Counted from the first letter of the stretch, positions 7,193 through 35,580 are shown. The stretch is DNA of 64,000 nt from Vulcanimicrobiota bacterium (GCA_963723515.1 CAVRQT010000003.1:832001-896000), one strand, 5' to 3'. The notes: generated by a model from the letters alone, not told the origin. Program-made: numbers and translations.

Positions 7193-7198
7193 GCTGCG

Positions 7199-7919: not shown

Positions 7920-7948
7920 ATTGTAGAGCCGCCCCCGGCTCTTGTCAA
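7920..7948 (-). promoter_or_regulatory. Sigma70/SigA-type promoter of the yceD-rpmF-fab operon
   Basis: Minus strand TTGACA (7948-7943), 17-bp spacer, TACAAT (7925-7920). Confidence 0.8.
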
Positions 7949-7966
7949 ACCGCGTGCGGCGCGTGA

Positions 7967-8721
7967 TTGGCGCGCGTGACCGAGATTTCTGCACTACCCG
8001 CCGTAACTCGAGAGCTGGCAAGCGATGGAGTGGCCTACGCGCCGGAGATTGCCTCTGCGGCACGCCGTCACGGTGTTGATCCAAAACTGTTGGCGGCAGT
8101 GGCTGCTCAAGAGACCGGCGGCCCCGGCGCAAATGCCGGGCACAACATCGTCGGCGACGGCGGACACGGCCACGGGCTGTTCCAAATTGACGATCGCTGG
8201 CATGACTTCGCCAGAACCGCTGCCGCGATGGATCCGGCGCAAAATGCCGACTACGCTTCGGGGATGATTGCCGGCCTCTTGCACTCGTACGGCGGGGACG
8301 TTCACAAGGCGCTCTCCGCATACAATGCCGGCAGTCCGGACGCAACCGGCACGGTCACCGAATGGATGGACGGGGAGCGCTTGGGATACGCGGATTCCGT
8401 CTTACGGCATTGCGCGCAGCTTGGCGAACCGATGCCAGGCGGCGCCGGCGGTTCAAGCGCTACCGCGAACAGCCAGAGCGATCAGGCTCAAGCGAGCATC
8501 GATGGCGGTCATGCAAGAGCTCTCGCAATTAAACGCTCTGCAATCGTTCGAGCAGACCTCTTCGCTCGACGAAAGTCTGTTGCAACCAAGCGTGACTTCT
8601 GCGACGGCGCCGAGCTACACGCAATTCGGCCGGCCTCGATGCGTACGGACACTCGCGCTACGACGTCTCATACGCCGGCCTATTGACCGATGACGACGGT
8701 TCATCGGCGGGAGATTCCTAA
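7967..8721 (+). CDS. GH23 lytic transglycosylase / g-type lysozyme-like protein with low-complexity C-terminal tail (tail frameshifted)
   Basis: LLAAVAAQETGG (catalytic Glu), GDGGHGHGLFQIDDRWH, ALSAYNAG; a shifted frame ends DDDGSSAGDS-TAA overlapping the next ATG. Confidence 0.85.
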
Positions 8722-9101
8722 TGAGCTTCAATCTGTTGAACGGCATCGTTCAGGGTGCCGAATCGTTTTTCGCATCGGGCGGCAATCCGATCGCGGGTGG
8801 TGCAGGGGCTTTAGCCGGCGGGTTAACCTCCGGCGCCAATACTGGAACAACTGTGGGCAACATGGGCAATGGAGCCATCGGCGCCCTCAACGCTGCCAAT
8901 GAAGCCGACACCGTCGCGATGTACGCCGAAAACTTGCGCCATCAGTCGGCCATGCAATGGGAGGCCACGTGGTTCAACGAGATGATGGATGAGAAGTCCG
9001 AACGCATGCGTCAGATGAACGAGTTGCGCGATCTGACGATGGAGCAGCGTAAAGCCGACAATCAAATTACGAAGAAGTTCATTCAATCGATCACTGAATG
9101 A
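8721..9101 (+). CDS. Small protein, Gly-rich N-terminus and amphipathic helical C-terminus (needle/pilin-like?)
   Basis: Clean 126-aa ORF coupled to both neighbours by start/stop overlaps. Confidence 0.75.
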   Translation: MSFNLLNGIVQGAESFFASGGNPIAGGAGALAGGLTSGANTGTTVGNMGNGAIGALNAANEADTVAMYAENLRHQSAMQWEATWFNEMMDEKSERMRQMNELRDLTMEQRKADNQITKKFIQSITE

Positions 9102-9359
9102 TCACACCGATACAGCCCGGTCGTCAGCGAAGCGCGACCGCCCAGGCATCCGATCGCAATCGGCGATGCCAAACCAGCTCCCGATCAGAATCAAATCGCG
9201 CACGACCAAGCCGCCTTGCTTGCCCAGCAAGCCACGTTTAACTTTGCGGTGCAAGAGCGGGCGGAGCTAATGCGCGAGTTCAACGAGCTGCGGGCGCTTC
9301 AAATGGAGCAGCTCAAACATGACGATGAGATCGTCAAAAAATGGATCGACTTGATCTGA
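9098..9359 (+). CDS. Small paralog of the upstream protein (one extra base near 9118; absent from ORF track)
   Basis: ATGA overlap; corrected translation MITPIQPVVSEARPP...ERAELMREFNELRALQMEQLKHDDEIVKKWIDLI. Confidence 0.7.
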
Positions 9360-9366
9360 GGCGGAA

Positions 9367-10342
9367 TTAAACCGAGCCGACAAGCTCGCAAAACGTTGCG
9401 AGATCGATGTTGCCGCCCGAGATCACGGTGACGATCGGTCCGTTGGCCTGAACTCTTCCCGAAAGCGCCGCAGCAACCGGTAAAGCGCCCGCCCCTTCCG
9501 CAATGACGCGCGCCTTTTCGGCGACCGTTTTCATCGCACGTTTTGTTTCATCAAGCGTGACCACGACGCAGCCATCGACAACGTCTTTCATCCGTTCCCA
9601 CATTCGCGGGAAGACGCTCTTGCCGCCGGCGCCGTCAACGAAGGTTGCTTGCCAACCCTCAAACGTGGAAGCTTTGCCTCTCGCGAATGACAACGAGCCG
9701 GGCGCTGCGGTCTCAGGCTCGGCGCCATAAACACGGACGTTCGGATGCCGCGCTTTAATCGCCGATGCGATGCCCGTCAGCAAGCCGCCTCCGCCGAGTG
9801 CCGCGACGACGACCTCCACATTCGGCAGATCTTCAGCGATCTCCAAACCGATGCTGCCGTTGCCGGCAATAAAATCGGCATCATCGAACGGATGGACGAA
9901 CGTTCCCTTAACGCCGGGAAACTCGCGCCGCTCGAGCGCTTCCCAGCACGCATCGAACGGGCGCTTTAACGAGCGTTGCGCCGAGCACACGCATGCGTTC
10001 GACCTTTGTTTCAGGGGCCGTTTCGATCGTCACAACGGTGCACGGCACACCGGCGGCGCGCGCCGCGAAGGCGACGCCCTGACCGGCATTTCCGGCGCTG
10101 ATCGTCCAAACGCCCGCTGCGCGGCGATCTTCCGGAAGCATCGCAACCGCATTTGCTGCCCCTCGGAGTTTGAACGAATTGATCGGCTGCAGATTTTCGA
10201 GCTTCAAGTAAATCTCGGGTCGACTTGAACCGAGCTCCAACTTGACGAGCGGCGTGCGCGCAATTGTCGGTGTAATGCGGTCGCGCGCTGCTTCGATCTC
10301 GGAGATTGCGATTGGCCGAATCGCCGGCAGCGTATCCGTCAT
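9367..10342 (-). CDS. PLP-dependent threonine/serine dehydratase family (frameshift near 9950)
   Basis: LKLENLQPINSFKLRGA, SAGNAGQG, GGGGLLTG, VISGGNID. Confidence 0.88.
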
Positions 10343-16482: not shown

Positions 16483-16710
16483 CTAAGCGCGTCGATCTGC
16501 GTGCTTGCGTTCATCTCGGTTCTCGTTACGATCGGCCGGGTTCTCAGATAAGAAACGTGCGATAAAGTCGGCGATTGCGCCGGGGCTCGTGACGTAGATC
16601 GTCCGACCCGAGGGAACGTGCTGTATGGATGCACGCCAAGCTCGCGCTTCCAAGCCGTCGTCGGTCCACACCCGAACAAGAAAAAGACTTTCGTTCCGCG
16701 AGGACATCAA
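16483..16710 (-). CDS. Small hypothetical protein divergent from the SARP-type regulator
   Basis: 75-aa ORF with FLVRVW...WRASIQHVPSG...IADFI pattern. Confidence 0.6.
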   Translation of the reverse strand: MMSSRNESLFLVRVWTDDGLEARAWRASIQHVPSGRTIYVTSPGAIADFIARFLSENPADRNENRDERKHADRRA

Positions 16711-16790
16711 CCGTACTGTACACGAGGGCCGTGCTACGGTCGTGCCGGAGCCAGACTGGGTTGCTCGGGCGTACCGAGAAAATCGCCCCT

Positions 16791-19700
16791 GTGCTGCGCA
16801 TAAAACTCCTCGGCAACGCTCACCTGTCCGACGGGGATATCGAACTCAAGATCCCTAGCCGGCGATTGTCGCTGCCACTGCTCGCCTACCTTCTGTTGCA
16901 CCGAAATAAAGCGATCGCGCGATCGCATCTGGCTTTTACCTTGTGGCCGGATGATAGTGAGGAGCATGCGCTAGCGGAGTTGCGGCGACACATCTATCTG
17001 CTAGGAAAGGCGTTCGCGACAGTTTCAAGCGGGGGACCCTGGCTGCTGGCGGATACGGAAACCGTCGCCTGGAGCAAGGATGCGACGTACTGGCTGGACG
17101 TCGCCGAGTTCGAGCGCTGCAGTCAGGATGAAAGTTGTCGCGCTGATGCCGTGACGTTATACGACGGGGATCTGTTGCCCGACATTTACGACGATTGGCT
17201 CGTCAGCGAGCGTGAGCGGCTGAGGCGCCTGCTGCTTGACGACCTGTGGGCGTTGATCCTCGCACGCCGAAGTGATCGCGCCTTTAGCGAGGCCCAGCAT
17301 TTTGCGCAGCGGTTGCTGGATGTCGATCCGTGGCGCGAAGACGCATTGCGCCAACTGATGTCCATCCGCTACGAATCAGGAGATGCAGCCGGTGCGCTGG
17401 CCGCTTTCGATCGTTTCGCGCAGAGGCTTCGAGCCGAAATGGACGTTGAACCGATGCCGGAAACGCTCGCGTTACGCCATGCCATTGTGCGCGGCGCCCC
17501 CGTCGAAGCCGCGCCAAAATCCGAAGAAGCACGGGTGCTCCCGCTTCGCGGACCATTCGTTGGACGCGCATCCGAGCTCGAACAACTGCGTGCCGTTTGG
17601 CGTCGTGCTGCACGAGGCCATGGCTCCGTTGCCGTCGTTTCCGGGGAAGCAGGCATCGGCAAAACACGACTTGTTGGCGAACTCGCTCTGGCGGCCGAGA
17701 GCGAAGGTGCGCGGGTGCTCTTCGGGTCCACAAGTTTTCCGGAGCACGAGCCATACCAGTGCATCGCCAGTGCGCTGCGCTCAAATCTCCCGCTTCTTGC
17801 GAATCTTAGCTTATCGCCTTCGCTGTTGGGGATCATCGCGAAGATCGTTCCCGAACTGCGCTCCGGGCGCCCCGACCTGCCTCTGCCTGTGCCTTTGACG
17901 GACGAGTCAGAAAAATCTCGACTGTTGGACGCCGTGGCTCAAGCGATGATTGCGCTGGCGCGCCCGCGACCCATGGTACTCATTCTCGAGGATCTCCATT
18001 GGTCCGGATACGCAACCGTCGAAGCCGTCGCGTCGCTTGCGAACCGTATTGCGGCAACTCCAATCTTAATCGTCCTCACGTATCGCGAAGAACAGGTGGG
18101 ACGCGCGCATCCGTTGCGGCGTTTGGAGCACGGTCTGCAGAGCGCTCATTTGACGAGCCGCGTAACGCTCGAGGGGCTAAAGCCTGAAGCGGTTGGCGAG
18201 TTAGTGACCGCGATTGTCCCGGGACGCAATGACGCCGCCGAAATGGTGCGATCGGTGTTCGAAACGAGCGAAGGTAATCCGCTGTTTGTAACGGAGATTT
18301 TGCGCAACATCGCTGGAAACGGCAATCGGGATGAATTGCCACGGAGCATCCGTGCGGCAATCGCCGATCGCTTAAACACTCTTGAACCGGCAACACGCGC
18401 GATCGGCGAGATCGCTGCGGTCGCGGGACAAGCGTTTACCATAGAGCTGGTACGCGAAACAGCCGGAGTCTCGGAATCTGAAGTATTGCAAGCGCTCGAT
18501 GAACTGCTGGAGCGGCATTTGGTGCGCGAAGTTAGCGCCAAGAACCGTTTCGATTACGCGTTCACGCATCACCTAATTCAAAGCGCCATCTACGAAGAGG
18601 TCGAACCCAAGTCTCGCCGGAGGCGGCATGGCCGTATTGCGCGCGTGCTGCAAGATTTGTATCCGGAGGTCGCGGCAGAGATGGCGGCCGAGATCGCATT
18701 TCATCTGGACCGCGCCGGTGACGTCGAGAGTGCAGCGCAGCACTACGCTGTTGCTGCCCGTCATGCGGCAGACTTGTATGCGAACGACGACGCTCGCGCA
18801 CTGGCGGAGCGCGCTTTGGAACTCCACCCGGGAGCCGATCGGCTGCGCTATGAACTGCTGCTCGTTTGCGAATCGATCGATTCTCGATTAGGAGAGAAGG
18901 CAAAGCAGAAAAGCCGGCTGGAAGCTCTTGAGGCGCTGGTTCCCGTGCTGGATGAACGTGCATCGGCCGAGGTCCTAATGCGTCGGATCGAATGTGCATT
19001 TCGCAACAACGATCGCAGCGAGGAGCTGCTCGCCATTGAAAAGCTGCGAGAACGCGCGCTGGCGGCGCACAATGCGTCATGGCTGGCCTTTTCGATGGAG
19101 GCGTTGGCGCAGCGCAAGCTTGCGACGTTCGACTACAGCGGGGCTCTTGCTGACGCAGAGTCGGCCTTCAGAAGTTATCAGCAACAAGGCAGTTCCGCCG
19201 GTTGCGTGCGCAGCCGCGCCATTGCGTCGTCGGCTGCAGCCGGGGCTGGAGATGCAGAAGGGGCCGCGCAGTACGTCGATCAAGCGATTGCAATTGCCGA
19301 ACGTAGCGGGGAACCGGCGCTGCTGGTGCGAGCTCTGCAAACTGCAGCTACTACGGCTCAGCAACGCCAGGACTACGTGCGTTTCGCCGAGTTTGCCGAA
19401 CGAGCACTCGTGCTCTGCCGCACAATCGGCGACCGCGAAGCTGAGGGATTCGCGCACAATCAGATTGGCACGGCGAACTGGTCGCTTTGGCGGCCGGAAA
19501 TAGCCTTTGCTCATCTACGCAAAGCAGTCGACGTCTTCACGTCAGTCGGAAGTACGCGCTTGGCGGTAGCGCTGACCAATTTGGGCGGCTTCTTGATGGA
19601 GCTTGGGGAGTTTGAGGCTTCTGCTACGACTTCAGAGCGCGCACACAGACTGGCGTTGGAGGAGCATCTCTATGACGCAGCAGGCGTTGCTCTGAGCAAC

Positions 19701-20294
19701 CTTGCCGAGTTGGCTCGATTCCGCGGCCGCGTTAAGGATCTCCGGGCCGTGGCGGACCGGATGGCAAACGCGCCATGGCGCGTTGCGGCGCCGCGCCAAG
19801 AAGCGATTTTCCTGGAGATTCAGGGCTGGCTGCTGCGCGCTACTGGGAAGTTCGAAGCCTCGCTGCAAGCTTTCAATGAAGTAAAACGGCGTCATTTGGA
19901 GTTGGGGCGTCTGCTCGACGCGCGGGAGGCCTTAGACGATTATGCTCTTGCGCTGCTCGGTGCCGGGCGTTATGCAGACGCGGTTGCCGCGCTTAGCGAA
20001 GCGAACGACCTGCGCGGGCAGCCGAACATGCTGATATATGAAACGCTGCACTATTGGATCACGGCGCTCGTGCATCACGCGGTGGATGACGTTCCAAAAA
20101 CCACGGAGGCCCTGGCCCGCGCCAAAGCTTTGTTCGAGGTGCGTCGTGCTGCGATCGAAGCACCCGAGATCCGCGCCAGGTTTGAAACCATACCACACCA
20201 TGTGGCATTGGTTGCCGCGTCCGAGCGCAACGTTTGGCCGGCACACGGAGCCATTGCTGGCCCCGCAAACAGCGTGCCGGACGATCAACGATAG
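16791..20294 (+). CDS. SARP/AfsR-like regulator: winged HTH, BTAD, AAA ATPase, TPR
   Basis: LRIKLLG, LYDGDLLPDIYDDWL, DPWREDALRQLM, FVGRASEL, GEAGIGKT, LILEDLHW, SEGNPLF; GTG start chosen. Confidence 0.9.
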   Translation: MLRIKLLGNAHLSDGDIELKIPSRRLSLPLLAYLLLHRNKAIARSHLAFTLWPDDSEEHALAELRRHIYLLGKAFATVSSGGPWLLADTETVAWSKDATYWLDVAEFERCSQDESCRADAVTLYDGDLLPDIYDDWLVSERERLRRLLLDDLWALILARRSDRAFSEAQHFAQRLLDVDPWREDALRQLMSIRYESGDAAGALAAFDRFAQRLRAEMDVEPMPETLALRHAIVRGAPVEAAPKSEEARVLPLRGPFVGRASELEQLRAVWRRAARGHGSVAVVSGEAGIGKTRLVGELALAAESEGARVLFGSTSFPEHEPYQCIASALRSNLPLLANLSLSPSLLGIIAKIVPELRSGRPDLPLPVPLTDESEKSRLLDAVAQAMIALARPRPMVLILEDLHWSGYATVEAVASLANRIAATPILIVLTYREEQVGRAHPLRRLEHGLQSAHLTSRVTLEGLKPEAVGELVTAIVPGRNDAAEMVRSVFETSEGNPLFVTEILRNIAGNGNRDELPRSIRAAIADRLNTLEPATRAIGEIAAVAGQAFTIELVRETAGVSESEVLQALDELLERHLVREVSAKNRFDYAFTHHLIQSAIYEEVEPKSRRRRHGRIARVLQDLYPEVAAEMAAEIAFHLDRAGDVESAAQHYAVAARHAADLYANDDARALAERALELHPGADRLRYELLLVCESIDSRLGEKAKQKSRLEALEALVPVLDERASAEVLMRRIECAFRNNDRSEELLAIEKLRERALAAHNASWLAFSMEALAQRKLATFDYSGALADAESAFRSYQQQGSSAGCVRSRAIASSAAAGAGDAEGAAQYVDQAIAIAERSGEPALLVRALQTAATTAQQRQDYVRFAEFAERALVLCRTIGDREAEGFAHNQIGTANWSLWRPEIAFAHLRKAVDVFTSVGSTRLAVALTNLGGFLMELGEFEASATTSERAHRLALEEHLYDAAGVALSNLAELARFRGRVKDLRAVADRMANAPWRVAAPRQEAIFLEIQGWLLRATGKFEASLQAFNEVKRRHLELGRLLDAREALDDYALALLGAGRYADAVAALSEANDLRGQPNMLIYETLHYWITALVHHAVDDVPKTTEALARAKALFEVRRAAIEAPEIRARFETIPHHVALVAASERNVWPAHGAIAGPANSVPDDQR

Positions 20295-22015
20295 TGTACT
20301 ACGACGTCATCATCGTCGGCGGAAGCCTAGGCGGTGCAGCGGCGGCCTTAAGCGCCGGCTCCAGCACGTATTCCGTCTGCCTTTTTGAGGCGAGCGATTG
20401 GATCGGCGGTCAGTTTTCATCGCAAGGCGTGACCAAGCCCGATGAAAACCGCTATATCGAGAGCGTCGGGAGCACCGCAAATTACCGGAATTTCCGGCAT
20501 GCCGTACGCGCGTTCTATCGCAATAACTACCGCCTCTCATCGCAAGGCGCAGGTCAGCCGACCCTCAATCCCGGCGGACCCTACCCCGGATTCTCAACCG
20601 AGCCGCGCGCCGCAAGCAATGTGCTCCTTCAGAGGCTCCAAGCGCGGCCCAACATTCACGTTCGCCTGAATACGCACATTACAACGGTCGACGTTCAAGG
20701 CGATCAAGTGCAAAGCGTTACGGCAGTCGGGCCTGACGGCACGCAAACCGTCTACACTGCAAAATATTTTCTCGATGCGACGGATCTCGGCGATCTGCTG
20801 CCGATGGCCAACGTTGAACACGCACTTGGCGCCGAGGCCAAAAGTGACACCGGTGAGCCGAATGCACCCGATACTGCGCGGCCGGATTGGATTCAACCGA
20901 TTACGAGCGTCGTTGCGCTTGAACACCGGCCTTCCGGCGAAAACCACACGATTGCGCCGCCCCCGAATTACGCAACGCTCAAGACGCAACAAAACTACAC
21001 CGTCGTGGACGGCTACATCTCAAAAGTCTTTCAAGCCGGCGTCGACATGTGGACGTACCGCCGCTACATCGATGCCGCCAACTTCAACGATCCAGCGTTT
21101 CCGAATGACTTGAGCATGCTGAATATGGGCGCCAACGATTACCAAGGCGCGACACCGCCTTCCGGTTCGGCCACTCAGGATGCCGCGATTATCGGACGCG
21201 CTCGTCAAGCCGCACTCGGCTTCGTCTATTGGCTGCAAACCGAAGTTCGGCGTGATGACGGCAGCGGCAACGGTTATCCGAATCTAAAGGTCCGCACCGA
21301 TCAATTCGGCACATCCGACGGTACGTCGGCACAGCCGTACATCCGTGAGGGGCGCCGCATCAAAGCCCGCTATACGATCGTGCAGCAAGATCTCGATCAG
21401 GCGTATCGCGGCGGCCCACGGGCGAAGAATTATCCCGATTCTTGCGGCATCGGTTTTTACGGCGGCCTCGATATCCACGCACTCGCCGCAGTGGGCATGC
21501 CGCAGCAATTCATCACGATTTGGCCGTTTCAAATTCCGCTGCGCTCACTGATCCCGGTGCGCGTCACGAACCTGATTCCAGCATGTAAGAACATCGGAAC
21601 GACACACATCACAAACGGCGCCTACCGCTTGCATCCCGTCGAGTGGAACATCGGAGAGTCAGCCGGCATGCTGGCGCGCTTTGCGATCGCGAACAACGTT
21701 AGCCCGGGCACGGTGGCAACGACGCCCACCCTCCTCCGTTCTTTTCAGCATCTGCTGCTGAGCGTCGGCGTTCCGCTCTTCTGGTGGACCGACATAACCG
21801 TGGATAATCCGCAACTGTTTTCCGCCGTGCAATTGCTCGGCGTCGACGGCATCATGAGCGGCAATCCGGATATGAGTTATGCGCCCAACGCAATCCTCAC
21901 CGATCTGGAGCGCGCCGATATCGACAGCGCCGTCGGACGGCAACTCAATTGGCCCGCGACGACGATGACGCGCGGTCAAGCGGCATTGTGGCTCGTCAAC
22001 CAACTCGCGCTGTAG
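20294..22015 (+). CDS. FAD-dependent oxidoreductase with C-terminal SLH-like segment
   Basis: DVIIVGGSLGG, WIGGQ, FLDATDLGDL, PYIREGRRI, YRLHPVEWNIGE; start overlaps the regulator stop. Confidence 0.85.
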   Translation: MYYDVIIVGGSLGGAAAALSAGSSTYSVCLFEASDWIGGQFSSQGVTKPDENRYIESVGSTANYRNFRHAVRAFYRNNYRLSSQGAGQPTLNPGGPYPGFSTEPRAASNVLLQRLQARPNIHVRLNTHITTVDVQGDQVQSVTAVGPDGTQTVYTAKYFLDATDLGDLLPMANVEHALGAEAKSDTGEPNAPDTARPDWIQPITSVVALEHRPSGENHTIAPPPNYATLKTQQNYTVVDGYISKVFQAGVDMWTYRRYIDAANFNDPAFPNDLSMLNMGANDYQGATPPSGSATQDAAIIGRARQAALGFVYWLQTEVRRDDGSGNGYPNLKVRTDQFGTSDGTSAQPYIREGRRIKARYTIVQQDLDQAYRGGPRAKNYPDSCGIGFYGGLDIHALAAVGMPQQFITIWPFQIPLRSLIPVRVTNLIPACKNIGTTHITNGAYRLHPVEWNIGESAGMLARFAIANNVSPGTVATTPTLLRSFQHLLLSVGVPLFWWTDITVDNPQLFSAVQLLGVDGIMSGNPDMSYAPNAILTDLERADIDSAVGRQLNWPATTMTRGQAALWLVNQLAL

Positions 22016-24354: not shown

Positions 24355-25216
24355 TTGACGAAGCCACGAATCGTTTTCGTGACCGGGCTTTCAGGTGCCG
24401 GCAAGAGCCAGGCCATGAAAACGTTCGAGGACTTGGGATTTTATTGCGTAGACAACCTTCCTCCCGCGCTTGCGACGGAGGCAATCAAGCTGCTGACTGC
24501 CGGCCACTTGGAACGCATCGCCGTGGCGCTTGATGTTCGTAGCGGGGGGCCGTTGGGCGAGGCAAAGCGCGTCTTCGACACTCTGCAACTAGACCACACG
24601 CGCCCCGAAATACTATTTTTGGAAGCGCAAGATGAAACGCTCGTTCGCCGCTACAGCGAAACGCGCCGCCGCCATCCCCTCGCGGGGCAAGATACGCTCA
24701 TTGAAGCGATCGCGGCAGAACGCGCTGCTCTCGCGCCCGTACGCGAGCGCTCAACGCAAGTGCTCGACACGACCAACTTGACACACGCCACCCTGAAGGA
24801 ACGCATCGCAGCGCTCTATACCTCGGCCGGACCGGCGCCGCGGCTGCTCGCCTTTGTTATCGCCTTCGGATTTAAATACGGCATTCCGCTCGACGTCGAT
24901 TTGCTTTTCGATGTGCGGTTTTTGCGCAACCCGAACTACGACGACAAACTTCAACCGTTAACCGGCCGCGACGCGGCAGTGGGCGAGTTCATCAATGCCG
25001 ATCCCGCGTACGAGCCGTTCATGAAACGCGTTGAGGACCTGCTCGATTTTCTCGTGCCGCGCTACTTGTCCGAGGGAAAATCACAGTTAACGATCGGAGT
25101 TGGCTGTACCGGTGGACGTCACCGCTCCGTGTATCGTCGCGGAACAACTCGCGCTGCACTTAGAGCGCAGCGCGCAAGTCGAAACCCATGTTGATTTTCG
25201 GGACATGACTCGCTAA
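24355..25216 (+). CDS. rapZ: RNase adapter RapZ/YvcJ (frameshift near 25135)
   Basis: VTGLSGAGKS, YCVDNLP, RRYSETRRRHPL, FGFKYG, GCTGGRHRSV. Confidence 0.93.
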
Positions 25217-26558
25217 TGCGCGACCGCTCGCTGCGGCTCTTCGGTTGGCTGTATCCGGGCATCGGCGTGAAGCGCTGGCTCGTTGTTGCAATCATCGGTG
25301 CCCTGCTTCTGGTCAACGGCATCAGCCGCTGGCTCGTCGCCGAGGGCATGCACCTCAATATCAACGAGTGGCTCGACGACTTTGTCGACGATCTCTTCCC
25401 GCCGTCGTACCTCTCGTGGATTTTTATATTCCTGGGAGTCGTCTTGATCGTCTTCGGCATCCGCCAATGGATGCGTTCACTGTTGCGCGCATCAACCGTC
25501 GGCGGCGCCGACCGCATTGTCGATACGCTGCTCGAGATGCGCATGAAAGACGGCTATAAGATCGTCGCCATCGGCGGTGGAACCGGACTTTCGACGCTCT
25601 TACGCGGCCTCAAACGTTACACGCCAAACTTGACTGCAGTCGTTACCGTTAGTGACGACGGCGGAAGCTCCGGGCCGCCTGCAAAAAGAGCTCGGTGTCT
25701 TGCCGCCGGGCGACATTCGCAACTGCCTCGTGGCGCTTGCCGATGATGAAGCACTCGTAACGGATCTTTTCCGCTACCGTTTCCGCGAAGGCGACGGGCT
25801 GTCGGGGCATTCGTTTGGCAATCTCTTTCTCGCCGCCATGACCGGAATCACCGGCAATTTCGATGAGGCGATTCGAGAGTCGAGCCGCGTGCTCAACATC
25901 AAAGGCCGGGTGCTGCCCTCAACGCTCGGCGTGGTGCGTCTTTGCGCGACGCTCACCGATGGAACAACGGTCGAAGGCGAATCGAACATTTCCGCTTCGC
26001 ATGCGCGAATCGATCGCGTCTACTTCGAGCCGCGCCACGCAGCGCCGTTGCCCGAAGTGATGGCTGCGATCCGCGAAGCTGACGCGATCATTCTGGGGCC
26101 GGGCAGCCTCTATACTTCAATCATTCCGAACTTTCTTAGTCGATCGCGTCGCCCAAGAAGTTGAGCGCTCGAGCGCGATCAAGATGTACGTCTGCAACGT
26201 GATGACGCAGCCTGGTGAAACCGATTCGCTGACTGCATCCGAGCATGCCGCTGCTTTATTGCGCAACGCCGGAGCGCGCGTCTTTGACTACGTGATCGTA
26301 AACGAAGAGTCGCCAAGCAAACTGCTCGAGGCGTACGCGGAGGAAGGCCAAGTCCCCGTTGAGGCCGACGCGGAACAGATTTCAGGATTAGGCTTGACGC
26401 CGGTGAGCGCGCGAGTCATCAGCGAAACCGTCAACGTGCGACACGATCCGGCAAAGCTCGCATCGGTCGTCCTTGGGCTGATCGAGCGCGCCGTCGCTCA
26501 ACGCGCTTCGTTCGTAAAGGCGCCTGCGGCGGCCGTCAGTGCGAGAGCTTCACTGTAA
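25216..26558 (+). CDS. yvcK: YvcK/GlmR gluconeogenesis factor with N-terminal membrane region (two frameshifts)
   Basis: IGGGTGLSTLLRGLK, VSDDGGSSG, PPGDIRNCL, GHSFGNL, GPGSLYTS, NVMTQPGET, RHDP. Confidence 0.9.
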
Positions 26559-26865
26559 CGGTCGCGGTTCCTGACGGTTCGACCGTGATCGTGTCGTTGA
26601 AATTCTTGTAACCGTCTGCGACCACTGCATAATCAACCGATCCACTCGGGACGTTCGCAACGCTGAATGTCCCATCCGTACCTGTGTGGGTCACTATGGC
26701 GGAGTCAACCGTCACCGTCGCATTCGCAACCGGCGAAGCAGTCGCGGCATCGACGACGACGCCTTTAACGATAGCGTATTTGGCTGAGGGCGGAAGCTGG
26801 TCGTCGTTGCAACCTACGGCAAAGGCGGCTAGGAGTGCGATCAATAGCAAGCGCGCGATTTTCAT
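26536..26865 (-). CDS. Lipoprotein with carboxypeptidase-regulatory-like (Cna-B type) domain
   Basis: Lipobox AVGC; VKGVVVDA...PVANATV...TGTDGTF. Confidence 0.75.
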   Translation of the reverse strand: MKIARLLLIALLAAFAVGCNDDQLPPSAKYAIVKGVVVDAATASPVANATVTVDSAIVTHTGTDGTFSVANVPSGSVDYAVVADGYKNFNDTITVEPSGTATVTVKLSH

Positions 26866-26969
26866 AAGCATTTCATCCTCAAAACTGCGACGCAGATTTC
26901 TCTCTTCGTCGTCCGCCGCCATAGCGCATTCGAAAGGCGCGATTGTGACTCGCGCGGAAGCGCCATTTG

Positions 26970-28378
26970 ATGGCAACGACGATCCCGGCTGAGGTAAAGA
27001 CCGGACCGGTTTACTTCGAAAACGCGCTGCAGGCCGTCGGCAACACGCCGCTGATTCGACTGAACAAGATAACCGACGGTGCGCGGTGCTTGGTTCTGGC
27101 GAAGGTCGAGTACGTGAATCCGGGCGGCAGCATCAAAGACCGGCCGGCGGTCGCGATGCTCGATGCGGCTGAACGCGAAGGGCTCTTGAAGCCCGGCGGA
27201 ACGATCGTGGAGCCGACCAGCGGCAACACCGGTTCGGGCCTTGCAATGGCCGCGGCGATTCGCGGTTACCGCTGCATCCTCGTCATGCCGGACAAGATGT
27301 CGACGCGAGAAAATCGATCTTCTGCGCGCCTACGGCGCCGACGTCGTCGTCACGCCGACCAACGTCCCGAACGACTCGCCGGAATCGTACTATGGGGTCG
27401 CAAACCGCCTCGCGGCCGAAATACCGGGCGCTTTTCAACCGAATCAATTTCACAACCATGCGAATCCAGAGGCGCACTACCGTACGACGGGCCCCGAGAT
27501 TTGGGAGCAAACCGGTGGAACGATTACGCCACTTCGTTGCCGGCCTGGGAACCGGCGGCACGATCTCCGGTGCGGCGCGCTATCTTAAGGAAAGAAATCC
27601 GAAGATCCACGTGATCGGCGCCGACCCCGAAGGTTCGATTTATTCGGGTGATACGCCGAAGTCGTACGCCGTCGAAGGCATCGGCATGTCGTATCTTCCG
27701 GAAACCGTCGATCTCAAGGTGATCGACGAGATGGTCAGAGTATCGGACCGCGATTCGTTCCTCATGGCGCGGCGCATCACGCGCGAAGAGGGTTTGCTGG
27801 TCGGCGGTTCATCGGGCACCGCAGCGGTTGCCGCCATGCGCCTTGCAAAGACGCTTCCGCAGGATGCGGTTATCGTCGTCGTCTTTCCCGATTCGGGCCG
27901 TGGCTATATGTCGAAGATCTTCAACGAGGATTGGATGATCGCCAACGGCTTCATCGCCGAAGGCAAGCGCAAAGCAACGGTCGGTGATGTGCTGCGCAGC
28001 AAAACGCCGCTGCCGCCGATGATCACCGTCAAGGACGATGACGTCGTCCGCGACGCCCTCGAGCTTTTGCGCAAATACGAAATCTCGCAGATTCCCGTTA
28101 TGCACGATCGCGAACAAATCGGCAGCATCAACGATGTTGCTGTCATGCAAGCGGTTTTCGACCAAGCCGACATCCTTCACAAGCCGGTCCGCGAGGTGAT
28201 GGGCCGCGCGTTTCCCGTTCTGGAGCAATTCGCCGAAATCGATCAGGCATACAAGCTACTCACGCTGGCCAACCCAGCCGTGGTCATTGCCGATGAGGGA
28301 GAGCCGGTCGGCGTGCTGACGCGTCAAGACATCATCTCGTATCTTTCGAGCAGCTCCGAGATGCCCAAAGCAAGGTAA
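26970..28378 (+). CDS. cbs: Cystathionine beta-synthase with C-terminal CBS domains (two frameshifts)
   Basis: [47 protein letters not shown] pair. Confidence 0.9.
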
Positions 28379-28385
28379 GGCCAGT

Positions 28386-29548
28386 CTGAAATTTAGCACA
28401 AGGCCATTCACATCGGGCAGGATGCCGATCCCGCAACCGGTGCCACGATCGTTCCGATTTACCAGACCTCAACCTACACGCAGGACGCCGTTGGCCAGCA
28501 TAAGGGATTCGATTACAGTCGAACGGTTAATCCGACGCGCTTAGCGCTCGAACGGCAATTAGCAGCACTGGAAGATGCAGAATACGGTAGCGCGTTCTCA
28601 AGCGGAATGGCGGCGACGTCTGCGGTGCTCGGCATATTATCGGCCGGCGACCATGTCGTCGTTACCGACGACCTTTACGGCGGGACGTACCGCCTCTTCT
28701 CGCGCGTCCTCGCTCGTTACGGTGTGGAATTCTCGTACGTCGATATGACCGACGCGAATGCGGTTCGCAGCGCGATTCGGCCAAACACGAAGATGCTGTG
28801 GCTAGAGACACCGACGAACCCACTCTTGAAGCTCATCGACATTCGCGCCATCTGCAACTCTGCGGCCGGCCAACGTGCATCGTCGCGATCGATAATACCT
28901 TCGCGACGCCGTACTTTCAGCGACCACTCGGGTTCGGCGCCGATATCGTCGTTCATTCGACAACCAAATACATCGGGGGCCACAGCGATGTTATCGGTGG
29001 CGCGGTGCTCACAAACAATTCGCAGTACTATGACGCGATCAAGTTTATTCAGAATTCGGCCGGAGCCGTCCCAAGCCCAATGGATGCATATCTGACGATG
29101 CGGGGCGCTAAGACATTGGCATTGCGTATGCGCGAGCACGCGAAAAATGCGCAACGGATCGCCGAATTTTTAGAGGCGCGCGAGGACATCGACCAGGTCT
29201 ATTATCCCGGCCTGCCGTCCCATCCGCAGCACGAACTCGCGAAGCGCCAGATGTCCGGTTTTAGCGGCATGCTGTCGTTTACGCTGAAAGGGCCGCAATC
29301 ACGCGCGCTTGATGTCGCGGGCCGAACGAAGATCTTCAGTTTGGCGGAGAGCTTGGGCGGCGTAGAATCGTTGATCACCCATCCAGGAAGGATGACGCAC
29401 GGTTCAATCCCGCGCGCAAGAGCGCGAAGCGCGCGGTGTAACGGACGGGCTGCTACGGCTTTCGGTTGGAATTGAGGATGTTGAGGATCTGGTCGCGGAT
29501 TTGGAAGCCGCGCTCGAAGCCACCAAACCCCAAACAGCACCGCTCTAA
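28386..29548 (+). CDS. Cystathionine gamma-lyase/synthase (frameshifts)
   Basis: [59 protein letters not shown]; follows cbs. Confidence 0.9.
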
Positions 29549-30023: not shown

Positions 30024-30578
30024 TTAGAACGATCGCGGTAAGACAACCGCCAGGTTTCGGAGCGCGTCTTTCGCTTTGTCTTCGTCGATAATACCGACGT
30101 GGCCCGAAACCGACACGACTATTCCGCGCCGGCCGTCGATCGTCGCATATGCGTATTGCTGCATCGAATCGAACCCTTCGCCGTAGGCAAACTTGAACCA
30201 ATAAGCCGGCATTCCGTTGGGCAATCGCGTCAAGACTTTCTTGCTCACAAAGAGCCCGTCGATTTGGTTGCGCAAATCGTTTTCGACGATCTGTTCGAAA
30301 TCGTTGAGCCCGCTTGGAAAGAGCACCATCATGATCAAGATCGTGAGCTGATCTTCCTTACCCCGGTTGTGAACGTACGCCGCTACGGGCGAGAGATGCG
30401 GCTGCTCCGATAAATCAACAGGCGGCACGGTGACGGCATCAAAATCGGGCGGCGGCTGAAACCGCACCGTATCGTCGGTATAAAGCGGCGCATCTGCCCT
30501 TGCGGGCGCCGGATTAACAAGCCCTATTCCGCAAACAATTACGGCGCAGAGGCAGGCTGCCAGCGAAAAACGGTTCAT
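30024..30578 (-). CDS. Secreted hypothetical protein (possible PsbP/DcrB-like fold)
   Basis: Signal peptide ending PARA; ATGA overlap with the upstream esterase. Confidence 0.65.
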   Translation of the reverse strand: MNRFSLAACLCAVIVCGIGLVNPAPARADAPLYTDDTVRFQPPPDFDAVTVPPVDLSEQPHLSPVAAYVHNRGKEDQLTILIMMVLFPSGLNDFEQIVENDLRNQIDGLFVSKKVLTRLPNGMPAYWFKFAYGEGFDSMQQYAYATIDGRRGIVVSVSGHVGIIDEDKAKDALRNLAVVLPRSF

Positions 30579-31612
30579 TCCCTCTCCAAGATGTTCGTCA
30601 AGAGCGGCATCGATACCGCGTAACGATACCCGACATTGCGATGGTCGTCATCGAACTCTTCGTGGATGACCTTCAACCCGAAGTCGCGGACGCGCTGCGT
30701 AAAGACACGCGCTCCGATATCGAGCCCGTACTCATCGCGGCGGCCGCAGTCGAGGTAACGCAAGCGAAGCCTCTCCAGTTCCGGCTGCTTTGCTAGGCAC
30801 ATGTCCGCCGGATCGTGCGCGCGCCAGCGCGCGAATACTTCTTCCACGAGCTGGCCCGTTTTGCGATCGACCGGCAAATCCAAATCGAATGCCGTCGCGC
30901 TGTGCGGAGAATACGCAGAGGCGTATCCGAGCATTTCGATTGTCTGGTATTCGGCGGTTTGCCGCTTATTTTGCTCCTCGAAGTGCTCCACGAACTTGCG
31001 GATGTTCCAGTCAAATTTTTCCAGCGTCCGATGCAACGCCGGGAAAGCCGGTGGATGCGCATAGGTGAAATACGAGTCGCCGCTGTGCGAAGCAAATGCC
31101 GCAAAGGCTCCGGGGCGCGTCATGCACAAAAACAGCGATCCAAAGCCGCCCGACGACTTGCCGAGCACGGCGCGGCCTCCTTCGGCGGCGATCGTTCGGT
31201 ACGCGCGATCCACATGCGGAATCACTTCGTCGATAACATAGTCGGCATAGTTGCCGTTGTGCACCGAGTTCATGTATTGCGATCCGCCCAGGCGCGTGAA
31301 GCCGTCGACGATCGCGAGAATCGCAGGCGGCATCTTTTTCTCGCCGATCAACCGGTCGATCCACTGCACGACATTGGTCTCCCAAGGCCGCGCTGAGACG
31401 AGCGCCGCGACGTCCCCAGTATAGCCGTGCAAACAATACAGCGTTGGATAACGCTTGGAGGCTTCGGCATCGTACCGCTCCGGTAAATAGACCGCAATGG
31501 CGCGTTGCGAGGGGTCGCCCAATGGATTGTCGCGCAAGGCTGCGCTGTCGATAAAGTCGATACGAAGATCGCCCTCGAGACGCAAGAGCCGCGCAAGGTC
31601 TGATTGAGCCAT
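30575..31612 (-). CDS. Putative esterase (Fes/Antigen85-like alpha/beta hydrolase)
   Basis: AVYLP...YPTLYCLHG, GKSSGG nucleophile motif, DCGRRDE, EEFDDDH. Confidence 0.85.
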   Translation of the reverse strand: MAQSDLARLLRLEGDLRIDFIDSAALRDNPLGDPSQRAIAVYLPERYDAEASKRYPTLYCLHGYTGDVAALVSARPWETNVVQWIDRLIGEKKMPPAILAIVDGFTRLGGSQYMNSVHNGNYADYVIDEVIPHVDRAYRTIAAEGGRAVLGKSSGGFGSLFLCMTRPGAFAAFASHSGDSYFTYAHPPAFPALHRTLEKFDWNIRKFVEHFEEQNKRQTAEYQTIEMLGYASAYSPHSATAFDLDLPVDRKTGQLVEEVFARWRAHDPADMCLAKQPELERLRLRYLDCGRRDEYGLDIGARVFTQRVRDFGLKVIHEEFDDDHRNVGYRYAVSMPLLTNILERE

Positions 31613-31671
31613 GCCGGCGTCATTCTCCGCCGCGAGGGCCCACTCCGACCCCACCGAATCCGGAGCGCCAC

Positions 31672-34600
31672 ATGATTCGCGGTGTCGGATTGCGTGGCGC
31701 GATCTCCGTCAACATCATCACGATGATCGGGATCGGGCCGCTGATCACGATTCCGCTCGTCGTCGGCGCATTGCACGGCGGTCTCGCGATCGCCGGATGG
31801 GTGATCGGCGCGATCATTGCGCTTTGCGATGGACTCGTGTGGGCGGAGCTGAGCTCTCGCTATCCCGGTTCAGGCGGTACGTATGTCTATCTGCGCGAGG
31901 CGTTTGGGCGGAAAAGCTGGGGCCGGCTGTTCGCCTTCCTCTTCAATTGGCAGTTCTTCTTCTGTGCACCGCTGCTTCTCGCGAGCGGGTATATCGGATT
32001 CGCACAATACGCGAGCTATTTGTTTCCGCAACTCGGTGCAAATCTTGGACTGCAGCATCTTGTTGCGGCGGCGCTCGCGATTGTGGTTTTGGTGTTGCTC
32101 TATCGTCGCGTAACAACGGTGACGCTCATCGCAACCGCCCTTGCCATAACGGCGCTCATCACGCTTATCACCGTCATCGCAGCCGGCGCGCCTCATATTC
32201 ATGCGGCTGCCTTCTCGTCCCCGAAGCCGCCGAATGCAAGCGCTTTTATGCTTGCGCTCGGGACGGCGCTCGTCATCACTCTCTATGACTATGCCGGTTA
32301 CAATAGCGCAGCGCTCATCGGTGATGAGATCGTGGCGCCGGTGCGCACGATTCCGCGATCGATCGTGCTCTCAATTGCAATCATCGCGGCGCTCTACATC
32401 CTGCTTCAGGTTTCTGTCTTGAGCGTTGTTCCTTGGCCACAGATTGTCGCTTCAAAATCACAATTCGTTGCTGCCAGCGCGATCGAAAACGTTTGGGGCG
32501 CCGCCTCGGCGCGCGTGGTGACCGTACTGATCTTGATCACGGCGTTCGCCTCAACATATGGGGTTCTGCTCGGTTTTTCTCGCATTCCATATGCAGCGGC
32601 ACTTGACGACGAATTCTTTCCTGTGTTCGGCCGACTCCATCCGCGCGGCCGATTTCCATATGTCTCGCTGCTGGTAATCGGGCTTTTGGCGATTCCAGCG
32701 TGCTTTTTTACGCTTGATGCCGTCATCTCGTTTCTCATCGCGGGAATCGTGCTGATTCAATCGATCGCCCAGATCGCCGCCCTCTTGATCTTCCGAAGGC
32801 GGGAAGGGGCGGCTCCGTTTAGCATGTGGCTCTTTCCGATCCCGGCGATCGTCGCGCTGCTCGCTTGGCTTTTCATCTTCTACTCTTCCGGAAAGAGCGC
32901 GATGCTCTACGGAACGCTTACGTTGTTGGCGGGTGTCATCGCGTATCTGATCACGGCACGCGTTCAGCGACGGTGGCCGTTCTTGGTGACCGTGGCTCTC
33001 GTAGCGCTTTGCTGCACGGCCGGCCGGCCCGCAAACGCGGCAAGCTTCGGCTCGAGCGCCATCGTGCAGCGCAATGGTTATCCCATTTTCACCGTTGACG
33101 GTAAACCGTTCTTTATCTATGGCGCGGCGTTCTTTTACGAGCGCATTCCGCGGGGGCTCTGGCGACAATCGCTCGTGGCATACAAAGCGCTTGGAATCAA
33201 CACGATCGACCTCTACGTCATTTGGAATTGGCATGAATTGCACGACGGCGATTTTGATTTTACGGGACGCACGAATCCACGCCGCGATCTACGTGGACTT
33301 TTGCAGCTGATCCATCGTTTCGGATTTCATACGATTATCCGGCCCGGCCCCGTGATTCGCAATGAGTGGCGCAACGGCGGCTATCCGGCGTGGCTTCTGG
33401 AGCGCCCGGAATACAATATGCCGCTGCACGACGTGCTCGAAGGGCGCTATCCCGCAACGGCGACCTTGCAGAATGCGCATTCCGATCAAGCAGCCGCCGA
33501 ATGGATGAGCAACTCGACGCATCTCCGCTACGCCGATCGCTGGCTAAGACGTGCGTTGATGGAAGTCGCCCCGTGGGGACGAGATGTGCTTGCGATTGCG
33601 CTCGATGACGATCAAGGCGCGTATCTCAACAATCAAACGTGGCCCGCGGCAAATTTTCAAGCCTACCTTCATCATCTGGCCGGCACGGTGCGATCGGTGG
33701 CCGGGACATCGATTCCGCTCTTCATCAACACATATCAGATGAAGGTCACCGCGTCGGCGCCGGTTTGGGCGTGGGGCAACTGGTATCAAAGCGAGGCATA
33801 TCATCTCGGCGAGCACGACCGTCGCGAGTTAGAGTTTTCCACTGCGCTCCTTGCGACGCAACCGCATCTTCCCGTTATGCAGAGCGAATTTCAAGCCGGC
33901 TGGCTGCAGGGTCCCGATCAGGCGCATCCGCGGCGTGTTGCTCCGGAAAACACCGCACTTGCTTTACACACCTTGCTCCAGTCAGGGACGCGCGGCATCG
34001 TCAACTTTCCGGTTCAAGATACTGTCTATCCCAGCGGCTGGGAAGTGCCGTTTGCGAATGCCTCCTACGCCTGGGATGCGGCTCTCACACTCGACGGACG
34101 GCACAATGCACGGTACCGCCCGACGATGGAGTTCGGGCAGTTGATTTCCAAGTACGGAAGACTTCTCGCGCAGACACATCGCGTTGCGGACGCCGCGATT
34201 GCCTATACCGTTAGCGCGTATGACCCCTTACAACTCAACGATGTTCGGCTTGACCAGGCTGTTACCGCGACCCGCGACGCCCTCACGGATTGCCGCACTC
34301 TGCGCCTAAGCTGCGATCTCGTCGATTTGCGGTACGCAAAGGATCGCGACTTGGAGCCTTACCGCTACCTTGTCGTGCCTCTCGTCAACGCATTGCCGTT
34401 GCAAGCAGCGATCTCAGCGAAACTCAAGCGGCTTGCGCCGCGTGTGCATATCGTCAGCTCGGTCGTCGAGGTGCATCCAGCAAAGCGTGCGGTCAATATC
34501 GCCAATGCCGTATTAAGTGTCAGCAGCGGGAAAGAACCGTTCGGCTTTCTCGATATCGTCAATTACGATCTGCGGCCTCGCTCAACAGGGCCAATACGGA

Positions 34601-35580
34601 TGCAACTCACACCAGCCAAGCAAGTGCGTCTTCCATCGGTTCGCCTCGCGGGCGCATCCGGTCTGTTGATTCCGATCAATCTCAGGCCATCAGATGTTGC
34701 GCAAAAAATCGCGGCACGACCAAGCGGACCGCCGACGCAACGACCTTGCCTTCAACCAGCGGCGCTGCTCTTTGCCGGCATCTGTTGGCGACTGCCGCCG
34801 ATCCGTTCCACAGCAGCCGCTCCAAGTGTGCCAATCGCGCGCCGCGTCGATGTAACGCAAGACGGCGAACCGTGGATCCTCCTCGCGAACCCAACGGCCA
34901 CCCTTGGCATCGCCCCGTTAGCCGGTGCGCGAGCGTTCGTCTTTCAAAATGGCCAAAGCGATGCATTTACGTCCACCGGTGCACTGCGTGACGACGTTGA
35001 TCCCGCACCAACGCCGTCGGCCCGAGACTACATCAGCACGTACACACATCAATTTCCGGCCGGTACCTTCAATCGTGCCTATGACTGTCGGATTCTCAAG
35101 GATGGCGCTCAGACAGCGTGCATGTATTTCGCGCCCGACCTCGGCACGCACTTTGAGCGGGCGATCACCATGCAACCAAAATCGCCGGCCTTTACATTAC
35201 GACTGCGCATGACGTCATCGGACCCGAAAAAACGAGGCGTGTTGCTGAGTGCGCTTTCGATCTCGAGCGCACTATCGCAATTCGTATCAGGAGCAATCAG
35301 CCGCTACACAGCGGGGGCAACGACTCCCGTCATGGACGGCGCTTTTGGATTCTACGATCCGACGACGCGAAAAGTGGCAACGGTCTGCTGGCCGCCACAA
35401 GAGCCGTTACAAGTCAACGTCGATGAGAAACCGGACGCAGCGATCGTGCGAGTCGTCTACCCTCCGGACACTTGGCAGAGCATCACGTTCGGCTATTATG
35501 CGGTTGCTGATCTTACCCAAGCGCGCAGCGTTGTTCAAGAGCTAAAAGGACGCGCATGCGTCGACGCGAACGGGCGGTAA
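31672..35580 (+). CDS. Fusion of APC-family permease, GH35 glycosidase and C-terminal beta-sandwich
   Basis: MIGIGP, WAELSSRYPGSGGTYVYL (APC); INTIDLYVIWNWHE, FDFTG, RPGPVIRNEWRNGGYPAWL, SEFQAGW (GH35); uninterrupted 1302-aa ORF. Confidence 0.85.
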   Translation: MIRGVGLRGAISVNIITMIGIGPLITIPLVVGALHGGLAIAGWVIGAIIALCDGLVWAELSSRYPGSGGTYVYLREAFGRKSWGRLFAFLFNWQFFFCAPLLLASGYIGFAQYASYLFPQLGANLGLQHLVAAALAIVVLVLLYRRVTTVTLIATALAITALITLITVIAAGAPHIHAAAFSSPKPPNASAFMLALGTALVITLYDYAGYNSAALIGDEIVAPVRTIPRSIVLSIAIIAALYILLQVSVLSVVPWPQIVASKSQFVAASAIENVWGAASARVVTVLILITAFASTYGVLLGFSRIPYAAALDDEFFPVFGRLHPRGRFPYVSLLVIGLLAIPACFFTLDAVISFLIAGIVLIQSIAQIAALLIFRRREGAAPFSMWLFPIPAIVALLAWLFIFYSSGKSAMLYGTLTLLAGVIAYLITARVQRRWPFLVTVALVALCCTAGRPANAASFGSSAIVQRNGYPIFTVDGKPFFIYGAAFFYERIPRGLWRQSLVAYKALGINTIDLYVIWNWHELHDGDFDFTGRTNPRRDLRGLLQLIHRFGFHTIIRPGPVIRNEWRNGGYPAWLLERPEYNMPLHDVLEGRYPATATLQNAHSDQAAAEWMSNSTHLRYADRWLRRALMEVAPWGRDVLAIALDDDQGAYLNNQTWPAANFQAYLHHLAGTVRSVAGTSIPLFINTYQMKVTASAPVWAWGNWYQSEAYHLGEHDRRELEFSTALLATQPHLPVMQSEFQAGWLQGPDQAHPRRVAPENTALALHTLLQSGTRGIVNFPVQDTVYPSGWEVPFANASYAWDAALTLDGRHNARYRPTMEFGQLISKYGRLLAQTHRVADAAIAYTVSAYDPLQLNDVRLDQAVTATRDALTDCRTLRLSCDLVDLRYAKDRDLEPYRYLVVPLVNALPLQAAISAKLKRLAPRVHIVSSVVEVHPAKRAVNIANAVLSVSSGKEPFGFLDIVNYDLRPRSTGPIRMQLTPAKQVRLPSVRLAGASGLLIPINLRPSDVAQKIAARPSGPPTQRPCLQPAALLFAGICWRLPPIRSTAAAPSVPIARRVDVTQDGEPWILLANPTATLGIAPLAGARAFVFQNGQSDAFTSTGALRDDVDPAPTPSARDYISTYTHQFPAGTFNRAYDCRILKDGAQTACMYFAPDLGTHFERAITMQPKSPAFTLRLRMTSSDPKKRGVLLSALSISSALSQFVSGAISRYTAGATTPVMDGAFGFYDPTTRKVATVCWPPQEPLQVNVDEKPDAAIVRVVYPPDTWQSITFGYYAVADLTQARSVVQELKGRACVDANGR

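Follow-up and report, generated by a model that had tools for sequence, protein, structure and literature searches.

The 64,000-nucleotide stretch of Vulcanimicrobiota bacterium DNA analyzed here (GCA_963723515.1 CAVRQT010000003.1:832001-896000; hereafter the window) carries on its plus strand, at 31672..35580, an open reading frame (ORF) of 1302 codons, designated P0001, in which a permease of the APC superfamily is joined through an internal signal-like segment to a glycosidase of family GH35. The fusion is genuine and conserved within a bacterial lineage, and is not an artefact of assembly; that it represents a real, exported GH35 protein fused to an APC permease can be held with high confidence. 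The 1302 amino acids are read without any internal stop, and the coordinates that a sequence-only reading of the window had assigned to the ORF and to its motifs (RRWPF, the hydrophobic segment that follows it, DDD and SEFQAGW) all proved to be correct. The start of the ORF is backed by homologs opening with the same MIRG(I/V)GLRG, and the gene is present as a single copy within its own genome of 2.11 Mb, which is in four contigs and 88% complete. Two Pfam profiles cover the two halves: AA_permease_2 (PF13520) at residues 17-404 (E = 2e-39, 136 bits against a cut-off of 27), and Glyco_hydro_35 (PF01301) at residues 473-582 (E = 2e-33, 116.7 bits against a gathering cut-off of 27), with the best stretch of the latter spanning only positions 2-107 of the 319 in the profile. 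When used as a query, the glycosidase part (residues 445-1302) retrieved 819 database proteins at E ≤ 1e-3, and, since most of the best 120 of these are 1250-1440 amino acids (aa) long and contain both PF13520 and PF01301, the two-domain architecture is far more than a chance association. These homologs are labelled in databases either as “amino acid permease” or as “beta-galactosidase” and, where the source gives a name, belong to Candidatus Eremiobacteraeota, Baltobacteraceae, Vulcanimicrobiaceae, Rubrimentiphilum and Meridianibacter.

To follow the distribution of the fusion, 201 genomes from the phylum of the window, one of which (G178) is flagged as unpublished, were sampled and scanned in six frames. 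A match was detected in 140 of the 201 genomes, and in 112 of the 113 that belong to the window’s own family (f1). The presence of a fusion, as proposed in the sequence-only reading, is borne out by full-length homologs with both domains, which at least 76 of the 201 genomes contain (75 of 200 if G178 is set aside); all 76 are from family f1, and in each a single-frame match extends from query residue 3 or less to residue 857 or beyond; this number was counted from the printed scan table and is a lower bound, and one of the 76 holds an internal TAG. Four more genomes show the same span interrupted by a frame change or by a contig end, and about 27 yield a glycosidase match starting near residue 440, the permease being matched separately at about 50-58% identity.

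An indel in the sequencing or assembly of the window, deleting the stop codon between two genes, could in principle have created such an ORF, and several neighboring genes do look frameshifted (ORF pairs 26967-27614/27392-28378, 25216-25746/25652-26164 and 28607-29095/28798-29475), while one relative, G162, has two genes at the position of the junction. However, the junction is in frame, the same fusion recurs in assemblies of independent origin (ncbi, jgi, ena, lgn), at least 75 genomes besides this one carry it, and the closest full-length relative, P0003 (67% identity), is likewise fused. An assembly artefact is thereby rejected on the evidence of homologs; we regard it as extremely improbable and close to refuted. 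A search for sequencing runs listed one DNA run, containing 6% of the sampled words, and no RNA run, which bears neither on the junction nor on expression or habitat. The two observations named beforehand as arguing against the fusion or its unusual DDD motif, namely a stop and start at the junction in relatives and homologs with ENE in place of DDD, were both looked for, and neither overturned the reading.

Fused, adjacent and unlinked states of the two genes are all present in one bacterial family. Six genomes without the fusion were inspected at the sequence level: in G144, G036, G130 and G136, the permease and glycosidase genes are widely separated; in G164, the two genes border each other, with the frame changing between them; and in G162, the permease gene stops after ...RWWPFATPSVA*, and a GH35 gene that encodes a signal peptide of its own lies directly next to it. 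Read-through of such an APC-to-GH35 gene pair is the simplest account of the fusion, in which the signal peptide of the enzyme would have become the 13th hydrophobic segment of the joint protein.

The junction between the two halves resembles an export signal. It consists of the cytoplasmic loop RVQRRWPF and a signal-peptide-like hydrophobic segment (residues 431-457; 32962..33042, plus strand), which would act either as a 13th transmembrane (TM) segment, TM13, or as an internal signal peptide; this signal-peptide-like character had not been recognized in the earlier reading. RRWPF occupies residues 433-437 and is followed in frame by LVTVALVALCCTAGRPANAA (residues 438-457, nt 32983-33042), the whole junction reading RVQRRWPF / LVTVALVALCC / TAGRPANA|AS, with an 11-residue hydrophobic core in the middle. 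The positive n-region, the h-region within the 7-15 residue range and the small residues at -1 and -3 are those of a Sec signal peptide recognized by signal peptidase I. In a set of 63 fused homologs, the stretch without charged residues or Pro that follows WPF is 7-19 residues long (median 12), and 60 of the 63 junctions contain AxA, compared with 39% of control windows of equal length taken from the soluble part of these proteins; the figures come from a simple pattern count and not from a trained signal-peptide predictor. Because standalone homologs of the glycosidase open with ordinary signal peptides, we infer that the GH35 part of the fusion is extracytoplasmic, the location which had been put forward for checking.

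The features of the hydrophobic segment favor a cleavable signal, so that the enzyme may be released rather than tethered; as the AxA signal-peptidase motif has been retained, the chain may be cut off after export. Prediction of a complex between residues 1-468 and 469-990 gave run scores of 0.38, 0.11 and 0.16 against a mark of 0.32, with controls not run, and speaks neither for nor against docking of the two parts. A precedent for processing of this kind is offered by the fbcH cytochrome b-c1 precursor of Bradyrhizobium, in which a polytopic protein, an internal signal peptide and a periplasmic domain are encoded by one ORF and processed into two proteins; it was not among the results of our literature search, it is unrelated to P0001, and in P0001 the processing is a prediction.

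The GH35 (beta/alpha)8 catalytic barrel occupies about residues 466-836 (33067..34179, plus strand), as delimited by PF01301, an AlphaFold2 (AF2) model and Foldseek. The model of residues 452-1302 (pLDDT 91.3, pTM 0.92) finds its best Foldseek match in IaSGT, the GH35 beta-1,2-glucosyltransferase of Ignavibacterium album (7vkz, E = 3.7e-26), followed by the exo-beta-D-glucosaminidase GlmA (6jow, 8oug and 5gsm) and then by human GLB1; the top matches listed are all GH35 chains, and the first GH42 chain appears at rank 36. By sequence, the closest solved relatives are the GlmA exo-beta-D-glucosaminidases (TK1754 of Thermococcus kodakarensis, or TkGlmA, PDB 5gsm; Pyrococcus 5gsl, 6jow and 8oug), which give the best PDB match for residues 466-581 (E about 1e-31), in support of the link to GlmA that had been suggested from the Asp preceding the acid/base residue.

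Active-site motifs are strikingly uniform within the family, as judged from 120 homologs. The motif LDDDQG contains D645-D646-D647 (33604..33612, plus strand; ALDDDQG starts at residue 643), of which D646 and D647, along with Q648, are shared by all 120 homologs, compared with 118 for D645, so that DDD is not a miscall. SEFQAGW (residues 738-744; 33883..33903, plus strand) includes E739, the predicted nucleophile by conservation and alignment, and the segment from E739 to W744 is again invariant (120/120). A third stretch (33214..33366, plus strand), for which the numbering was transferred from the alignment to 5gsm, contains Y515 and R563-N564-E565-W566, with RNEW present in every one of the 120; according to the same alignment and to the residue list in PMC8861115, Y515 and E565 correspond to Tyr53 and Glu103, two residues of the -1 subsite in TkGlmA. 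In the model, barrel strand 4 (model residues 188-194) leads straight into the motif with D647, and E739 is located in strand 7 (284-289), in the layout typical of clan GH-A, with E739 being the Glu at the end of strand 7 that characterizes a GH35 nucleophile.

The roles of these residues can be predicted by alignment to GlmA-type enzymes. When the family profile was compared with PDB, “aldDD” was aligned to “tiDDE” of Pyrococcus GlmA, and hhalign to the GlmA-like protein P0263, which itself matches TkGlmA 5gsm at E = 5e-226, paired LDDDQ with LDDEP and SEFQA with IETQA. The acid/base of TkGlmA is Glu179 and its nucleophile Glu347, while Asp178 binds the protonated C2 amine, and the D178N mutant is inactive (PMC6566704). 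On the basis of these alignments and the roles of TkGlmA residues, D646 is predicted to occupy the position of Asp178, D647 that of the acid/base Glu179, and E739 that of the nucleophile. Both halves of P0001 belong to known superfamilies, and the glycosidase, which is of the GH35/GlmA type, lacks a hallmark of that type: where strand 4 should be followed by the acid/base Glu, within Asn-Glu or, in GlmA, Asp-Glu, 120 of 120 homologs have Asp647. An Asp in this capacity has a precedent in an active amino-sugar hydrolase from the same clan, since CsxA, a GH2 exo-glucosaminidase, uses Asp469 as its acid/base (PMC6566704). The GH35 domain is likely to be catalytic. LDDDQ is also found in larger relatives at 35-43% identity, one of which is named Candidatus Acidoferrales. 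Distant relatives of 1100-1300 aa (P0180-P0216) keep the N-terminal barrel signature xxWRxGGY without DDD and EFQAGW, and are probably non-catalytic descendants of a GH35-like fold.

The exported part comprises four domains and about 845 residues. The C-terminal beta-sandwich noted by the sequence-only reading calls for a correction, as there is no single sandwich: according to the AF2 model and Foldseek, the barrel is followed by an alpha/beta domain (about residues 837-931; 34180..34464, plus strand, from the model secondary structure), a small beta domain, and a galactose-mutarotase-like supersandwich of about 240 residues (about residues 1055-1291; 34834..35544, plus strand). Modelled within residues 1020-1302 (pLDDT 88), the supersandwich is matched in Foldseek by GH38 Bl_Man38A (7ufr, E = 2.5e-9), GH57 1k1x and the mutarotases 2htb, 3mwx and 3nre (YeaD/GalM), and its residues G1085, R1087, R1106, D1107, D1119 and H1126 are invariant in 58 fused homologs. 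Also invariant in the 58 is the Cys pair C874/C881 of the alpha/beta domain; the cytoplasmic GlmA-like P0263 has other residues where the two Cys align, and such a pair fits an oxidizing compartment.

The permease half (residues 1-430; 31672..32961, plus strand) is an APC permease of the LAT-like type, as indicated by the PF13520 match and by full coverage of the 12 TM helices of solved members. Its residues 10-425 align to residues 9-424 of the 444 in BasC (6f2g), and it also aligns to xCT, LAT1 and b0,+AT; the number of 12 TM helices is taken from this homology to solved structures, because crude hydropathy missed about two of them. It remains below the cut-off of every named NCBIfam transporter model (98.7 bits against 701.8 for the LAT model TIGR00911, 124.1 against 556.8 for TIGR00909, and 90.1 against 800 for FrlA, NF008466), which leaves the analogy to the amino-sugar-conjugate carrier FrlA, drawn in the earlier reading, rather weak. 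Residues invariant in the family are G20-I21-G22-P23 in TM1 and Y205-D206-Y207-x-G209-Y210 in TM6. In the latter motif, YDYxGY, D206 corresponds in the alignment to Ala of xCT; an acidic residue in the unwound region of TM6 would suit a cationic substrate.

Immediately upstream of P0001 and divergent from it lies a gene for a CE1/feruloyl-esterase-like serine esterase with a GKSSGG motif (30575..31654, minus strand; PF00756), in which no signal peptide was seen, and which matches 8z91 in PDB at 1e-36, along with feruloyl esterases and CE1 entries. Downstream of it is a gene for a 184-aa protein with an N-terminal signal-like segment (30024..30578, minus strand) and with no match in Pfam or NCBIfam. 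In relatives, the esterase gene adjoins the fused gene in 10 of 11 loci and the standalone GH35 gene in 6 of 6, versus none of the four APC-only loci, and the 184-aa gene is kept beside it in 10 of 11 fused and 4 of 6 standalone-GH35 loci. Since the esterase stays with the GH35 gene and not with the APC gene, the older unit appears to have been composed of esterase and glycosidase; part of this adjacency may represent inherited gene order, because synteny in several loci extends to AroA and an M20 peptidase. At 64-72% identity among relatives, the esterase is more conserved than the fused gene.

We tentatively favor, as the best overall explanation, an exported retaining exo-glycosidase for a cationic 2-amino sugar, coupled to a permease. 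The N-terminal 12-TM LAT-like permease would end in the cytoplasm, where the C-terminus is located in solved 12-TM carriers of the LAT/BasC type, and the short Arg-rich loop with the signal-peptide-like segment would carry the remaining chain across the membrane, after which it may be cut off at AxA. The exported enzyme would be a retaining exo-beta-glycosidase representing an uncharacterized GH35 clade, with E739 as the nucleophile and D647 as the acid/base, while D646 would select a protonated 2-amino sugar of the GlcN type, to be removed from oligosaccharides in the periplasm. The permease would then take up a product of the glycosidase reaction, and the fusion would ensure one-to-one synthesis and co-localization of the two, with or without later cleavage. 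An amino-sugar substrate for the GH35 domain is plausible, yet we would stop short of calling it probable, and we view coupled uptake by the permease with the same reserve.

Several observations weigh against this explanation. LAT-type permeases usually carry alpha-amino acids, and we know of no APC member shown to carry glucosamine, although no search was made on this point. The glycosidase falls far short of the GlmA equivalog model NF041127 (118.9 bits against 1500), matching it in residues 472-578 only. R563 and N564, which precede the conserved Glu565, are invariant in the family but are replaced by C-G in GlmA, and the -1/+1 pocket is therefore not that of GlmA. The side chain of Asp is shorter than that of the usual acid/base Glu, so that catalysis could be slow or follow a different mechanism, or the domain might bind its ligand without cleaving it. 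The CE1-like neighbor points to esterified glycans rather than to chitosan. A search of the 88%-complete genome found no GH18, with classical NagB remaining below cut-off; GH20, a ROK kinase, NagA at cut-off and a GlmM-like mutase, which the same genome does contain, are consistent with the explanation. Finally, on a tree of the GH35 barrel region (125 rows, of which 63 are labelled as fused, 35 as alone, 22 are unlabelled in-group members and 5 are outgroups), the fused and alone labels shift at least 12 times by parsimony, and at least 6 shifts are forced by well-supported branches, with no direction assigned; these numbers are rough and upper-leaning, because some “alone” labels are N-terminally truncated gene calls, such as P0016, which begins within the permease. 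Since the fused and unfused states interchange at least 6-12 times, and the genes are unlinked in four genomes, the physical tether is dispensable.

These shifts on the tree would also agree with a different explanation, in which the two halves are unrelated or only loosely related: the GH35 domain would act on a neutral or esterified glycan together with the CE1-like esterase, the permease would import ordinary amino acids, and the fusion would be a neutral read-through. The esterase indeed follows the GH35 gene when the two halves are unlinked, the APC domain resembles a standard LAT-type amino-acid carrier, and known GH35 members are mostly beta-galactosidases, with one beta-1,2-glucosyltransferase (PMC8861115). 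Nevertheless, retention of the fusion in at least 76 genomes from many genera, at only 50-60% identity, argues for selection, and a form with adjacent genes in an operon exists in G162. Furthermore, all homologs have Asp in place of Asn at the C2-binding position, where the Asp of GlmA is what selects GlcN over Glc (PMC6566704). We consider loosely related halves rather unlikely.

The GH35 part could alternatively be a non-catalytic ectodomain, serving as a sugar sensor or as a stabilizing “heavy chain” similar to rBAT/4F2hc. The acid/base Glu is missing, and the distant relatives devoid of both catalytic motifs indicate that the fold can drift to non-catalytic roles; on the other hand, none of the 120 homologs departs from the nucleophile, the pair of Asp or the residues of the -1 subsite, and CsxA, with its Asp acid/base, is an active member of clan GH-A. 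The best solved relatives of the permease are SLC7 light chains and BasC, and the topology, with a cytoplasmic end, one hydrophobic pass and an external TIM barrel, mirrors that of a type II heavy chain (PMC8537225), but the retained AxA motif suggests release rather than docking. Moreover, the same invariant active-site set is kept in free, signal-peptide-bearing forms without the transporter, which disfavors the “catalytically altered sensing domain” entertained in the sequence-only reading and makes a non-catalytic ectodomain unlikely.

The preferred reading, that of an exported amino-sugar exo-glycosidase coupled to a permease, draws mostly on GlmA, with which P0001 shares the barrel and alpha/beta-domain layout, the Asp before the acid/base, the equivalents of Tyr53 and Glu103, and an aligned nucleophile. 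It differs from GlmA in having Asp instead of Glu as the putative acid/base and R-N instead of C-G before the conserved Glu, in the spacing between acid/base and nucleophile (92 residues, as in canonical GH35, versus 168 in TkGlmA), in the extra mutarotase-like C-terminal domain and the fused permease, and in its export, GlmA being taken as cytoplasmic because no signal-peptide-like N-terminus is seen in the alignments. IaSGT (PDB 7vkw-7vl5), the best Foldseek match with a TM-score of 0.57 on target length, comes from the same GlmA-like branch of GH35, but is only 16% identical to P0001 in sequence; it has Asn175-Glu176, is cytosolic without a signal peptide, and acts on glucosides (PMC8861115). 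CsxA from Amycolatopsis orientalis shares clan GH-A, a GlcN substrate and an Asp acid/base (PMC6566704), but belongs to GH2, and its amine-binding residue is the distant Glu394 rather than the residue preceding the acid/base, the comparison being by description and not by sequence.

The heteromeric amino-acid transporters LAT1-4F2hc and b0,+AT-rBAT present the same combination of a LAT-type permease, one membrane pass and a bulky external TIM barrel of a glycosidase fold. They consist of two disulfide-linked chains, in contrast to the single polypeptide of P0001, and their ectodomain is GH13/alpha-amylase-like; the GH13 ectodomain that defines an SLC3 heavy chain is absent from P0001, in which the ectodomain is GH35, keeps catalytic-type residues, and follows a junction that looks cleavable. 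The resemblance to SLC7/SLC3 can thus be regarded as an architectural analogy without homology of the ectodomains. It would be quite unlikely, in our judgment, for P0001 to be a single-chain bacterial counterpart of such a transporter, in which an active GH35 enzyme with an Asp/Glu pair would be anchored by TM13 atop the LAT-like permease, would use that pair to cleave a cationic amino sugar, and would pass its product straight to the transporter; if it were, cutting and import would be truly combined in one machine, and P0001 would be the first member of the APC superfamily to carry a free amino sugar.

In our search of the literature on GlmA/GH35, on Eremiobacterota glycosidases and permeases, and on rBAT/4F2hc, which left most subscription journals outside, no description was found of the fusion, of a DDD-type GH35 clade, or of the extra mutarotase-like domain. 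If the proposed assignments are correct, GH35 would gain a clade with Asp-Asp in place of Asn-Glu or Asp-Glu, widening the known ways in which clan GH-A handles amino sugars, and the signature LDDDQ...SEFQAGW could be used to annotate the hundreds of proteins that at present carry the label “amino acid permease” or “beta-galactosidase”. The fusion would also serve as a natural Rosetta stone connecting a periplasmic glycosidase to a permease of the LAT type; with fused, adjacent and unlinked genes available in a single family, the reasons for tying an enzyme to a transporter could be addressed cleanly, as could the question whether an internal signal peptide yields two proteins from a single ORF. 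It would then represent a nutrient-acquisition trait that is nearly universal in one family of the uncultured-dominated phylum Eremiobacterota.

Elsewhere in the same genome (L024, G000:C3:144000-160000, positions 5167-9855), a second APC permease of 528 aa adjoins genes for a NagA-like amidohydrolase and a GlmM-like phosphohexomutase, so that a permease again neighbors enzymes of amino-sugar metabolism. Within the window, the overlapping ORF pairs mentioned above correspond to genes that appear split between different frames: a PALP+CBS enzyme at 26967-27614/27392-28378; a 2-phospho-L-lactate-transferase-like/YvcK-like gene, named by guess from its sequence, at 25216-25746/25652-26164; and a Cys/Met PLP enzyme at 28607-29095/28798-29475. 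These splits, at 25216-29475, suggest either assembly indel errors or pseudogenes, which may add to the 88% completeness estimate. Farther upstream, at 16629-22015 on the plus strand, a gene for a 1221-aa BTAD + AAA_16 + TPR regulator precedes one for a 593-aa FAD-dependent oxidoreductase (PF12831).

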